Shown here: piece after piece, positions 2,916 through 18,283 of the stretch
Position numbering within the stretch: the first letter of the stretch is position 1
Layout: every line of letters begins with the position of its first letter
Assembly: GCF_000406145.1 (NCBI RefSeq)
Contig: NZ_CM001976.1
Coordinates: 3,834,955-3,866,954, forward strand
Direction of reading: 5' to 3'
From: Dickeya dadantii NCPPB 898
GTDB taxonomy: Bacteria; Pseudomonadota; Gammaproteobacteria; Enterobacterales; Enterobacteriaceae
DNA: 32,000 nt
Notes under the pieces: model-generated
What the model saw: only the letters and a program-made list of their open reading frames with translations
What the model was told of the DNA's origin: nothing
Databases searched by the model: none
Program-made: the position numbers and the translations under genes

Positions 2916-3468
<553 letters not shown>

Positions 3469-3473
3469 AACAA

Positions 3474-3884
<411 letters not shown>

Positions 3885-14928: not shown

Positions 14929-16179
14929 ATGAAAATTATCAACGCCGCCCTGCGTCATCAGGCCGGGTTCCACACGCTGCAACTGCAGGACGGCCTGATT
15001 GCCGCGATAACGCCCCAGCCTGCCTTACTGCCCGCCGCGCCGGATACCATTGACGCCGCCGGGCAACTGGCGATTCCGCCGCTGGTGGAACCGCATATTC
15101 ACCTTGATGCCGTCCTGACCGCCGGTGAACCGGAGTGGAACATGAGCGGCACGCTGTTTGAAGGCATCGAACGCTGGAGCCAGCGCAAAGCCGTGATCAC
15201 CCACGAAGACACCAAGCACCGGGCGCATACCGCCATCGGCATGTTGCGCGACCACGGCATCCAGCACGTTCGCACCCACGTCGATGTCACCGATCCATCG
15301 CTGGCGGCGCTGGAAGCGATGCTGGAAGTCAAAGACGAGGCGAAGGGTTTGATCGACCTGCAAATCGTCGCCTTCCCGCAGGAAGGCATCGAGTCATACC
15401 CGGCAGGCCGCCAACTGATGGAACGCGCCATCGCGCTGGGCGCCGACGTGGTTGGCGGCATTCCCCATTTTGAGAACACCCGCGAACAGGGCGTCAGCTC
15501 GGTGAAATTCCTGATGGACCTGGCGGAACGCACCGGTTGTCTGGTGGATGTACACTGCGACGAAACCGACGATCCAAACTCGCGTTTTCTGGAGGTGCTG
15601 GCGGAAGAAACGCGGGTGCGGGACATGGGCACGCGCGTCACCGCCAGCCATACCGTGGCAATGGGGTCTTATGACAACGCCTACTGTTCGAAACTGTTCC
15701 GCCTGCTGCGCCGCGCGGGCCTCAGCTTCATTTCCTGCCCGACCGAAAGCATCCACCTGCAAGGGCGATTCGACACCTTTCCCAAGCGCCGCGGCGTCAC
15801 CCGGGTAGCCGAACTGGACCGTGCCGGCATGAACGTCTGCTTCGGGCAGGACTCGATCAAAGATCCCTGGTACCCGCTCGGCAACGGCAACATTCTGCGC
15901 ATCCTCGACGCCGGGCTGCATATCTGCCACATGATGGGGTATCAGGATTTGCAGCGCTGCCTTGATTTCGTGACCGACAACAGCGCCACATCGCTGCATC
16001 TGGGCGATCGCTACGGTCTCGCCGTCGGCCGCCCCGCCAACCTGCTGATTCTGGATGCGGAAAACGACTACGACGCGGTGCGGCGTCAGGCCAAAGCGCG
16101 CCTGTCGATACGCCACGGAAAGATCATCATGCAGCGCGAACCGGAGCTGATTCGGTATCCGAGCTATCAACCGGCTTAA
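14929..16179 (+). CDS. codA: Cytosine deaminase (amidohydrolase superfamily)
   Basis: Collinear with E. coli CodA: PPLVEPHIHLD, SGTLFEGIERW, GIQHVRTHVDV, DLQIVAFPQEGI, VDVHCDETDD, RVTASHT, CFGQDSIKDPWYPLG. The ATG at 14929 is preceded by AGGAG, so it is preferred over the tracked GTG at 14923. It starts 2 nt after the regulator stop. Confidence 0.92.
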   Translation: MKIINAALRHQAGFHTLQLQDGLIAAITPQPALLPAAPDTIDAAGQLAIPPLVEPHIHLDAVLTAGEPEWNMSGTLFEGIERWSQRKAVITHEDTKHRAHTAIGMLRDHGIQHVRTHVDVTDPSLAALEAMLEVKDEAKGLIDLQIVAFPQEGIESYPAGRQLMERAIALGADVVGGIPHFENTREQGVSSVKFLMDLAERTGCLVDVHCDETDDPNSRFLEVLAEETRVRDMGTRVTASHTVAMGSYDNAYCSKLFRLLRRAGLSFISCPTESIHLQGRFDTFPKRRGVTRVAELDRAGMNVCFGQDSIKDPWYPLGNGNILRILDAGLHICHMMGYQDLQRCLDFVTDNSATSLHLGDRYGLAVGRPANLLILDAENDYDAVRRQAKARLSIRHGKIIMQREPELIRYPSYQPA

Positions 16180-16196
16180 CGCTATTCGCGCTGAGC

Positions 16197-16234
16197 GTGA
16201 CGAAGAGCCTATTGAAGCAGGCTCTTCGCGTCAC
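16197..16234 (+). terminator. Imperfect stem-loop after codA (terminator-like, no U-tract)
   Basis: CGAAGAGCCT / AGGCTCTTCG forms a 10-bp stem with an 8-nt loop. It is extended by GTGA/TCAC across a 2-nt bulge. No T-run follows. Confidence 0.35.
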
Positions 16235-16263
16235 TCGCGCAAGATAGAGCTCATTCAACGCTA

Positions 16264-16297
16264 TACATTCCACGCTACAATACATTCCACGCTACAA
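16264..16297. repeat. Perfect 17-bp tandem direct repeat (TACATTCCACGCTACAA x2), with a degenerate partial copy just upstream, in the fic promoter region
   Basis: 16264-16280 and 16281-16297 are identical. TCATTCAACGCTA at 16251-16263 resembles the core. The junctions create the -10-like hexamers TACAAT (16276-16281) and TACAAA (16293-16298). Confidence 0.9.
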
Positions 16298-16333
16298 AAT
16301 AGTGCGGTGTGATGCTGAAGGTCGGAGGATATC

Positions 16334-16954
16334 ATGGGACGATATAATGTTTTCAGCAGCGAAGGACAGTACGCGCAAGGCTCGGAAGATCAGGTGCTGA
16401 AAAACAAACTCGGTATTGCCGCCCCTGATGAAATTGACGGCGCTGAACTGGTGCTGCTGGAAAAACTGTACCATTTCGTCTTTGAAGACCACTTTCCCGC
16501 CAACCAGCCGTTGAGTGTCGACCTGATCAGGGCATGGCACGCGCTTTGGCTCGGCAACCTCTATGACTGGGCCGGTCAGAACAGGTCCGTCAATATCAGC
16601 AAAGGCGGATTCCTGTTTGCCAGTGCGTCACAAATCCCCAGCCTGCTTGCTAAATTCAACGATAAATGCCTCCCCCGATACACACCTTGCACTGGCATGA
16701 CACGCGATCGGTTGGTCGAAGCCATTGCGGTTATCCACGTAGAGTTGATACTGATTCACCCCTTTCGTGAGGGAAACGGGCGTATATCAAGGCTGGTAGC
16801 GGATGTGATGGCCGTTCAGGGCGGTTATCCCCCACTGGACTATCAGCCATGGGAACAGAACAAGAACCAATACATCAGTGCTATCCATGCCGGAATCGGA
16901 ATGGATTATGAGCCGATGAAATACTGGGTTAATCAGGCACTGACAGGCGGATAA
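16334..16954 (+). CDS. fic: Fic family protein (AMPylase-type, class-I-like: no internal inhibitory helix motif)
   Basis: Canonical Fic motif HPFREGNGRISR at residues 142-153 (nt 16757-16792). VLKNKLGI is present in the N-terminal region and the flap-like NISKGGFLFA upstream of the motif. A GGAGGA SD lies 6 nt before the ATG. I found no (S/T)xxxE(G/N) motif anywhere in the 206 aa. Confidence 0.92.
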   Translation: MGRYNVFSSEGQYAQGSEDQVLKNKLGIAAPDEIDGAELVLLEKLYHFVFEDHFPANQPLSVDLIRAWHALWLGNLYDWAGQNRSVNISKGGFLFASASQIPSLLAKFNDKCLPRYTPCTGMTRDRLVEAIAVIHVELILIHPFREGNGRISRLVADVMAVQGGYPPLDYQPWEQNKNQYISAIHAGIGMDYEPMKYWVNQALTGG

Positions 16955-17124
16955 ACAGCCAGATTCAGGTAAGCGAACTTATCCCGTTGCTCGTCCAGAG
17001 AAGAGGCAATATTGCCGGAAGACTGGCCGGTTTCAATGGCCGTCGATGTCGTCACAGTACGAATGATTTGCTCGCGAGAAGGCATCACATACTGCTCGTT
17101 CTGGCGCTTTTGGTTGACAGCCAT
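16933..17124 (-). CDS. Hypothetical 63-aa protein, candidate Fic-inhibitory antitoxin (VbhA/FicA-like S-x-x-x-E motif)
   Basis: A strong GGGAGGA SD lies 5 nt before the ATG (RC of 17122-17124). A perfect TATAAT (RC of 17151-17156) lies upstream. The protein is hydrophilic and contains TTSTAIETGQ (S27-x-x-x-E31). Its 3' end overlaps the fic 3' end by 22 bp convergently. The functional assignment is inference only. Confidence 0.55.
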   Translation of the reverse strand: MAVNQKRQNEQYVMPSREQIIRTVTTSTAIETGQSSGNIASSLDEQRDKFAYLNLAVYPPVSA

Positions 17125-17269
17125 ATCGTCCTCCCAATATTGGTCCGTTTATTATACATGCAACCTGGCATGAAGTAATCCTGCCCTGAAAGCAAAAGGA
17201 AACCACCCAAGTCTCTTTAGCCACATTGCCGTCTCCGGCAGCACATCATGACATTCACTGGCGCCCGGG

Positions 17270-18283
17270 TTAATCCGCATTGATCTCAGGCCGCAGCATC
17301 CCCTCCCGGCACCGTTGCTGGTAACTCTGTTCAAAAGTCTGCATACCGACCTGGCTGCCGGTTTGCAGCAGGCTGGGCAACTGGTGGGTTTTGCCTTCGC
17401 GGATCAGGTTGCTGACCGCCGGGGTGGCGAGCAGCACTTCAAACAGCGCCACGCGCCCGCCTTGCGCGCCCGGCAACAGTTTCTGCGCCACCACCGCCTG
17501 CAGGCTGGCGGCCAGTTGCGCGCGGACAAACGCTTTCTCCTCGGCGGGAAAAACGTCCACCAGCCGATCCACCGCCTGCACCGCCCGCCGGGTATGCAGC
17601 GTCGCCAGCACCAGATGGCCGGTTTCCGCCGCCGTCAGCGCCAGCCGAATCGTCTCGCTGTCGCGCAACTCGCCGAGCAGCAGTACGTCCGGGTCTTCGC
17701 GCAGCGCCGCCCGCAGCGCGCTGGCGAATCCTTCGCTGTGACGGCCGATCTCCCGCTGCTGGATCAGGCTGCGCTGGCTGGTATGCAGGAACTCAATCGG
17801 GTCTTCCAGCGTAATGATATGGCGCGCGCGGCGTTGATTAAGCGCGGCAATCATCGCCGCCAGGGTGGTGGATTTACCGCTGCCGGTGGCGCCGGTCACC
17901 AGAATCAGGCCATCGGCGCGCTCGGCCAGCTCCGCCACCACCGGCGGCGCGCCCAGCGTTCGCAGGTCGGGTTGGTGTGACGGGATCAGACGTAACGCCG
18001 CCGACAGGCCATGGCGCTGCATAAACAGATTAGCCCGTAACCGCTGGCCCTCCGGCAGCGTCAGCGCGCAATCGGTCTGCCCGCGTTGCCGTAGCTGCTG
18101 CTCGCAGGCCGGCTCCAGCCAACTGTGGCACCACTGTTCCAGTTCGGCGTTGTGCAACGGCGGCTGCGCGGCATCCGCCACCAGTTGCCCGTCGATACGC
18201 CAAATCGGCGGATGACCGCTGCACAGGTGCAGATCGGACACATTCTGTTTTACACTAGACCGCACCCATTCACTCACATCCAT
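17270..18283 (-). CDS. yggR: PilT-family type IV pilus retraction ATPase homologue YggR
   Basis: The internal Met of ORF 17270..18343 gives MDVSEWVRSSVKQNVSDLHLCSGHPPIWRIDG..., collinear with E. coli YggR. Walker A is GATGSGKST. Also present: REDPDVLLLGELRD and TGHLVLATLHT. A GGAGA SD precedes the start. It is divergent from yggS as in E. coli. Confidence 0.92.
   Translation of the reverse strand: MDVSEWVRSSVKQNVSDLHLCSGHPPIWRIDGQLVADAAQPPLHNAELEQWCHSWLEPACEQQLRQRGQTDCALTLPEGQRLRANLFMQRHGLSAALRLIPSHQPDLRTLGAPPVVAELAERADGLILVTGATGSGKSTTLAAMIAALNQRRARHIITLEDPIEFLHTSQRSLIQQREIGRHSEGFASALRAALREDPDVLLLGELRDSETIRLALTAAETGHLVLATLHTRRAVQAVDRLVDVFPAEEKAFVRAQLAASLQAVVAQKLLPGAQGGRVALFEVLLATPAVSNLIREGKTHQLPSLLQTGSQVGMQTFEQSYQQRCREGMLRPEINAD

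Follow-up and report, generated by a model that had tools for sequence, protein, structure and literature searches.

Under the criteria of Engel et al. from 2012, a class I Fic protein is said to have an intact core motif and no internal (S/T)xxxE(G/N) motif, and to be accompanied by a separate partner that carries this motif in its strict form. The partner is further expected to bind the Fic protein and inhibit its AMPylation, and Fic by itself to be toxic. Here we describe a fic gene and a small gene facing it in a 32,000-nucleotide stretch of the Dickeya dadantii NCPPB 898 genome (the window; the positions of the Dickeya features refer to it). The two genes very probably make up a class I Fic toxin–antitoxin module, of a type (FicY–AntY) known from Yersinia pseudotuberculosis.

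Several class I systems can be compared with the Dickeya pair. VbhT–VbhA of Bartonella and EcFicT–YhfG of Escherichia coli, with which the class was founded, embody the principle proposed for Dickeya, a Fic AMPylase inhibited in trans by a helical protein with an S-x-x-x-E motif. Unlike in Dickeya, the antitoxin gene in both lies upstream and is co-transcribed. The solved Fic protein closest in sequence to the Dickeya Fic is Fic-1 of Pseudomonas bijieensis 2P24 (8WT0; phmmer E 7.5e-14, 54.9 bits), likewise of class I, with its small S-x-x-x-E inhibitor encoded separately. In this complex, S24 and E28 of the inhibitor, AntF, touch the Fic motif's second arginine, R146; both inhibition and deAMPylation depend on E28, the Fic-1–AntF complex being a deAMPylase (PMC13327609). 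The system differs from that of Dickeya in that antF lies immediately upstream of fic-1 in one operon, the AntF motif is canonical and Fic-1 prefers GyrB. No sequence similarity was detected between AntF and the Dickeya small protein.

The most pertinent system is FicY–AntY. FicY (YPK_0608) of Y. pseudotuberculosis YPIII is a Fic protein of class I, and antY is a convergent open reading frame (ORF) downstream of ficY with the motif S22TAIET27 (Lu et al., 2020, Front Microbiol, PMC7479194). Under the action of FicY, cells cease to grow, form filaments, show a par phenotype and induce the SOS response, and H141A abolishes all of this; purified AntY inhibits, in a dose-dependent manner, the AMPylation of YpParE Tyr106 by FicY in vitro (PMC7479194). 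According to the authors, ficY and antY have independent promoters (PMC7479194). We recovered the AntY sequence in two steps. The primers of the paper yield in silico a 159-base-pair (bp) ORF in several loci, and the 90% identity cluster of this ORF holds a Y. pseudotuberculosis sequence (P0353, MTKKTVHSQITKTQIYRAVASSTAIETG...; in full, MTKKTVHSQITKTQIYRAVASSTAIETGVSVQKIEQQLKQNLAQAKAVGLAR), in which S22 to T27 read STAIET. It should be noted that the primers in question are labelled 'FicY-BamHI-F/SalI-R for cloning YPK_0608' in the supplementary table but encode MTKKTVH at one end and VGLAR followed by a stop at the other (PMC7479194). They amplify the antY-type ORF in silico, without fic, and the labels in the table were probably mixed up.

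The Dickeya pair beside FicY–AntY

As a reference for the FicY type we used locus L116, whose small ORF next to fic shares a 90% cluster with the AntY of Y. pseudotuberculosis. The Dickeya Fic aligns with the L116 Fic over its full length (45% identity over 203 residues, E 2e-58), H142 falling on H141. The small proteins are also related: the Dickeya protein is 39% identical to the AntY type over 41 residues (E 4e-7), and the AntY-type ORF of L116 matches the hidden Markov model of the Dickeya small-protein family with an E value of 1e-16. The two systems share a Fic protein of about 205 residues with HPFREGNGR and no internal inhibitory helix, and a protein of 52-63 residues with S-T-A-I-E-T-G, encoded downstream on the opposite strand. 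They also share the small-protein family, the Fic clade and a match to the PADLOC model PDLC04839. Given identities of 45% (Fic) and 39% (small protein), the Dickeya pair forms a paralogous sub-clade and is not an orthologue of FicY–AntY. Compared with AntY, the small protein of Dickeya is longer at the N-terminus and carries six extra residues at the C-terminus, and this C-terminal extension raises the overlap of the two genes from 4 to 22 bp. The features of the locus are as follows.

16334-16954, plus strand: fic, 206 residues (ORF list and sequence)
16933-17124, minus strand: small antY-like gene for a 63-residue predicted inhibitory-helix antitoxin (ORF list and sequence)
16933-16954, no strand: convergent 3' overlap of the fic and small-ORF coding regions, 22 bp
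16757-16792, plus strand: Fic active-site codons H142-P-F-R-E-G-N-G-R-I-S-R153 (HPFREGNGRISR)
17026-17046, minus strand: codons S27-T-A-I-E31-T-G33, variant inhibitory motif closing helix 1 (C-terminal end)
17129-17135, minus strand: Shine-Dalgarno sequence of the small gene, GGGAGGA, 4 nucleotides from the ATG (direct reading)
17151-17156, minus strand: perfect -10 hexamer of the small gene, TATAAT, 26 nucleotides from the ATG (direct reading)
16324-16329, plus strand: Shine-Dalgarno sequence of fic, GGAGGA (direct reading)
16263-16296, plus strand: perfect 17-bp tandem direct repeat, two copies of ATACATTCCACGCTACA, in the fic upstream region

The initial annotation, made from the sequence of the window, had described a perfect Fic active site with no inhibitory motif in the same protein, and both statements hold at the level of sequence. 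The protein matches the Pfam Fic family (PF02661, E 3e-17), and HPFREGNGRISR forms residues 142-153 with the core HxFx(D/E)GNGRxxR intact. Of its residues, H142, P143, R145, G147, N148 and G149 never vary among 35 relatives, and conservation of E146, R150 and R153 reaches at least 90%. A regular-expression search of the 206 residues finds neither [ST]xxxE[GN] nor the looser [ST]xxxE. The possibility that an internal inhibitory helix had been overlooked could thus be dismissed, there being zero [ST]xxxE in the protein, and a Fic protein without this motif needs a separate partner. The usual place for such a partner is vacant, as had been noted: no plausible small ORF lies on the same strand within the 154-bp gap between codA and fic. 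The convergent small ORF has the expression signals attributed to it, both the Shine-Dalgarno sequence and the perfect TATAAT having been found again, and its 22-bp overlap with fic agrees with the ORF coordinates. Both ORFs already figure in NCBI records of D. dadantii, as 'Fic family protein' and 'hypothetical protein'.

A small-protein family with an E-T-G motif

The segment TTSTAIETGQ of the small protein reads as previously described, S27-T-A-I-E31-T32-G33, with threonine where glycine or asparagine is expected. An exhaustive HMMER search gathered homologues in 103 clusters at 50% identity. The family profile reached 2,746 clusters at 90% identity, spread across Proteobacteria; these are mostly of about 50-65 residues and, among the matches listed, unnamed or "hypothetical". 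In an alignment of 106 sequences, R22, S27, A29, E31, T32, G33 and L55 are invariant, and S27 and E31 are invariant also in a set of 63 sequences. The threonine after the glutamate is therefore a feature of the whole family, E-T-G being invariant in the 106-sequence alignment.

The family is under purifying selection. With 80 distinct small-gene sequences from different species, the annotated frame has a median ratio of nonsynonymous to synonymous substitution rates (dN/dS) of 0.15, below that of each of the other five frames (0.28 to 2.2). Since the annotated frame has the lowest value, selection must act on the protein, beyond any effect on the DNA or an antisense RNA. A chance ORF or an element with only an antisense function was considered and rejected, given the selection at the protein level and the invariant serine and glutamate.

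An AlphaFold2 model built with the family alignment (mean predicted local distance difference test score 83) places the motif at the end of a confidently predicted helix, residues 17-32, which is followed by a turn, GQS, and by another helix, residues 36-49. In the published structure of VbhA the inhibitory motif closes the first helix, and the motif of the small protein has a similar position. The initial annotation had proposed a search against the antitoxin families of VbhA and YhfG, and here the outcome was negative: neither the Dickeya protein nor 63 members of its family match PF18495 (VbhA) or PF10832 (YhfG) at E<=10, with models that do recognise VbhA and YhfG themselves. The small protein has zero matches in the Pfam, NCBIfam, PADLOC and PHROGs profile libraries, as have the small proteins with a canonical motif found in the sister clade (below). 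The family profile gave only chance matches against all PDB sequences (E > 0.8), and a Foldseek search of the PDB with the model gave nothing under an E value of 5, a two-helix hairpin being too small to inform. Alignment of the family or the sister clade with hhalign to the single VbhA sequence was not significant, although one sequence is a weak template and a remote homology is possible.

The sister clade provides a bridge to the canonical motif. When the search was centred on Fic, using 69 metagenomic Fic loci with enough downstream DNA, a convergent small ORF was present at 62 of them: 24 of the E-T-G type and 38 of a canonical S-x-A-I-E-G type. The Fic proteins of these 38 loci are more distant, about 35-45% identical, and their partners have a TNPYLRDP segment followed by S-[ST]-A-[IV]-E-G. 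Intermediates exist that combine TNPYLKDP with SSTAIETG. A profile-profile comparison of the E-T-G and E-G types gave a probability of 90% (E 1.5e-6) and placed serine on serine and glutamate on glutamate; the Dickeya-type motif is in register with SSAIEG of the sister clade. Farther out, more distant phage-borne Fic proteins have no such convergent partner, and the distant relative L168 has the classical upstream layout with the motif SSKLEG.

Co-occurrence, gene decay and the convergent junction

The initial annotation had suggested looking for homologues of both genes side by side, and conserved homologues of the small gene do adjoin Fic genes. In a survey of the 80 best loci encoding the small protein, one genome per species, a convergent Fic gene or its remnant stands beside the small gene in 72 species. 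Fic is full-length and convergent in 52 of the 80, full-length but frameshifted in 4, and a partial remnant in 16; there is no Fic in 6, and in the last 2 the small ORF itself was unrecognised, with a Fic remnant in both. The association is thus near-obligate and keeps the same orientation.

An intact small ORF accompanies a broken Fic in 20 of the 80 species. That Fic breaks first while the small gene stays intact is the order of decay expected of a toxin and its antitoxin. Fic genes that are truncated, frameshifted or almost gone, at around 3000-3800, were seen beside intact small genes in L014, L019, L021, L024, L032, L038, L040, L047, L053-L055, L058, L059, L062, L069, L071 and L085. In Pragia and Limnobaculum, a second, unrelated ORF of about 340 residues with a Fic domain (HPFSDGNGR or HPFPDGNGR) was seen within 1-2 kb of the pair (L008, 1704-2726; L018, 4247-5269).

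The decay pattern also bears on another way of viewing the pair, as a reversible regulator of topoisomerase. The Fic–small-protein complex would then be the physiological form and chiefly a deAMPylase, with no growth-arresting toxin–antitoxin system. The serine and glutamate equivalent to those of AntF are invariant in the small-protein family, which speaks for such a role. The activity, however, was shown only for Fic-1–AntF, which is distant from the Dickeya Fic and has the upstream operon layout, and over-expressed FicY is clearly toxic (PMC7479194). Frequent decay of Fic beside a retained small gene is also more in keeping with a toxin than with a regulator of use to the cell, and we find this view unlikely.

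The junction of the two genes has a regular form. In 41 of the 52 loci with a full-length Fic, the stop codons of the two genes share exactly 4 bp, reading TTAA, TTAG, CTAA or CTAG. Some species have no overlap, the genes being separated by gaps of 15-23 bp. Dickeya departs from this norm of a 4-bp stop-codon overlap: its 22 bp result from a stop-loss particular to Dickeya (TTAA/TTAG to TTAT). The loss appends the six residues YPPVSA to the small protein of Dickeya; in the related Dickeya cluster P0018 (named for D. fangzhongdai), they read HPPVSA.

An antisense layer arising from convergent, overlapping transcription, as put forward in the initial annotation, is plausible. No intrinsic terminator was detected across 16100-17400, and where genes overlap or abut without a detected terminator, each transcript must run into the other gene. 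Carried further, this would make the control of Fic mainly RNA-based, through antisense pairing or polymerase collision in a type I-like manner, with the small protein secondary or dispensable. In nearly all loci one coding region overlaps (by 4 bp in 41 of 52) or adjoins the other, with no room left for a terminator, which speaks for such control. Yet purified AntY alone inhibits FicY in vitro (PMC7479194), the overlap is mostly of 4 bp and is absent in some species, and the small gene stays intact after Fic has decayed. Together with the dN/dS of 0.15, the many synonymous changes in the small gene and the serine and glutamate invariant in 106 sequences, these observations make a mainly RNA-based control highly improbable.

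Another proposal is that the clade-wide, tail-to-tail overlap of stop codons, kept with E-G and E-T-G partners alike, is a regulatory device: with no terminator in between, polymerase collision or 3' antisense pairing would couple the two promoters. The protein inhibitor would thereby gain an RNA-level switch that triggers phage defence by PDC-S04, the PADLOC candidate defence system whose model these Fic proteins match. We consider this doubtful, if conceivable. If true, reduced transcription of the antitoxin would directly de-repress expression of the toxin, and the 'single-gene' PDC-S04 of PADLOC would really be a two-gene system.

The surroundings of the Dickeya pair are as the initial annotation had them. 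The pair lies between codA, encoding cytosine deaminase, and yggR, encoding an ATPase of the PilT/PilU family, after which comes yggS. The region 16180-17269 has 51.6% G+C against 60.2% and 62.2% in the flanks, which bears out the lower-G+C islet that had been noticed by eye; horizontal acquisition of the pair in Dickeya is plausible. Upstream of fic, the tandem 17-bp repeat is joined by a third, partial copy at 16253-16263, and the repeat array lies 38 bp 5' of the fic start. The repeat may serve as an operator or as part of a promoter, or may mark the scar of an insertion. Other Enterobacterales lack it upstream of fic and share there a different conserved block ending GCGTTATAAT. A LexA box in the latter block was entertained and dropped, being a poor match to CTGT-N8-ACAG. 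Nearer to codA, 22 bp past its stop, there is an inverted repeat at 16201-16228 with perfect 10-bp arms and an 8-nucleotide loop (CGAAGAGCCT...AGGCTCTTCG); it resembles a terminator hairpin but has no run of T.

Mechanism, role and significance

In the mechanism that we favor, Fic is an AMP-transferase whose target is most likely the tyrosine in the ATP lid of ParE (topoisomerase IV), or possibly GyrB, by homology to FicY. AMPylated topoisomerase would arrest chromosome segregation and lead to filamentation and the SOS response. The 63-residue protein would bind the Fic domain so that its helix 1, ending in S27-x-x-x-E31-T-G, sets E31 against R153. This contact would hold ATP in a non-productive pose and thereby block AMPylation. 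The complex may also strip AMP from the target, by analogy with Fic-1–AntF. The two genes appear to have separate promoters and to be transcribed toward each other, unlike vbhAT or yhfG-fic. With separate promoters, the ratio of toxin to antitoxin would be set by two independent promoters, and it may also respond to convergent transcription. The initial annotation had suggested that the glutamate for inhibition comes in trans from the small protein, and this inference is strongly supported by the comparative evidence and by the biochemistry of FicY–AntY.

Several points weigh against the FicY–AntY-type module. Binding, inhibition, target and toxicity in Dickeya are argued from homology, and with no more than 45% identity to FicY, the Dickeya Fic might act on a different target (ParE or GyrB). 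The partner departs from the strict motif (S/T)xxxE(G/N), since T32 occupies the position of glycine or asparagine and glycine comes next; judging from AntY, a proven inhibitor, the STAIET variant would work despite the mismatch. Neither by sequence nor by fold could similarity of the small protein to VbhA, YhfG or any PDB chain be detected. With similarity to known antitoxins undetected, the link to an inhibitory helix rests on the short motif, the continuum with the sister clade and the AntY experiment. The promoter of the small gene has a poor -35 element, matching at most 3 of 6 positions, and was for this reason missed by a promoter scan. Finally, there are orphan small genes with no Fic nearby, in 6 of the 80 surveyed species (L041, L045, L075, L077, L086 and L087) and in some Serratia strains (L001, L002).

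The module might alternatively serve mainly in abortive infection against phages. The AntY-like protein would then be a labile or phage-sensitive brake, and once it is lost during infection, Fic would be free to poison topoisomerase and halt the infected cell. Such a function agrees with the toxin–antitoxin mechanism, from which it departs solely in biological role. The Dickeya Fic, the FicY type and members of the EG type all match the candidate defence model PDLC04839 of PDC-S04; for the Dickeya protein the match is nearly complete (E 1.5e-89, residues 1-203 on positions 1-202 of the 205 in the profile). PDC-S04 is nevertheless a computational candidate that has not been validated, and the only test in a native host that we found in the literature, with E. 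coli NILS69, showed no defence activity (bioRxiv 10.1101/2024.12.20.629700).

The E. coli pair occupies the variable region of ygbA, immediately beside type I restriction-modification and AAA ATPase genes (L088, L089; 7001-7785), where RefSeq names the small gene 'hypothetical protein'. The Marinomonas pair adjoins DUF262 genes, and some orphan small genes are in restriction-modification or ATPase neighbourhoods. The pair is patchy and rare, being present in 14 of 5,426 complete E. coli genomes. Pairs of the FicY type are further found on contigs that were classified as viral or prophage and beside integrases, as would fit carriage on integrative elements. Immediately upstream, the Fic gene has a 450-residue integrase-like ORF (by reading of the sequence) in Aeromonas caviae and an annotated site-specific integrase in the IncHI plasmid pNDM-CIT (L005, 1618-2970; L006, 1680-2996). 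In Dickeya, on the other hand, the neighbors are the housekeeping genes codA, yggR and yggS. A mainly anti-phage role is possible on this evidence, but we lean away from it and retain the toxin–antitoxin module of the FicY–AntY type as the preferred description.

The initial annotation had regarded the module as atypically organised. Its convergent layout stands, but not its novelty: the Dickeya pair is real but of a known type, the convergent organisation having been published in 2020 (Lu et al., PMC7479194), and the layout is the rule for the whole Fic clade. What is modestly new is how large the unannotated AntY family is, that the stop codons overlap by a conserved 4 bp, that the motifs form a continuum from E-G to E-T-G and that the toxin decays first. 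To these may be added that the PDC-S04 model comes without its partner gene: PADLOC treats PDC-S04 as a candidate of one gene and lacks a model of the small partner.

In sum, Dickeya gains one more chromosomal toxin–antitoxin locus, the mechanism of which is predictable from the Yersinia work. Because the AntY family has no model in Pfam, NCBIfam or PADLOC, this clade's Fic genes are routinely taken for orphan class I genes or for single-gene PDC-S04. Recognition of the partner is relevant whenever these Fic genes are cloned, defence systems are scored or toxin–antitoxin loci are counted. The continuum from S-x-A-I-E-G to S-T-A-I-E-T-G indicates further that the textbook motif, (S/T)xxxE(G/N), is too strict.

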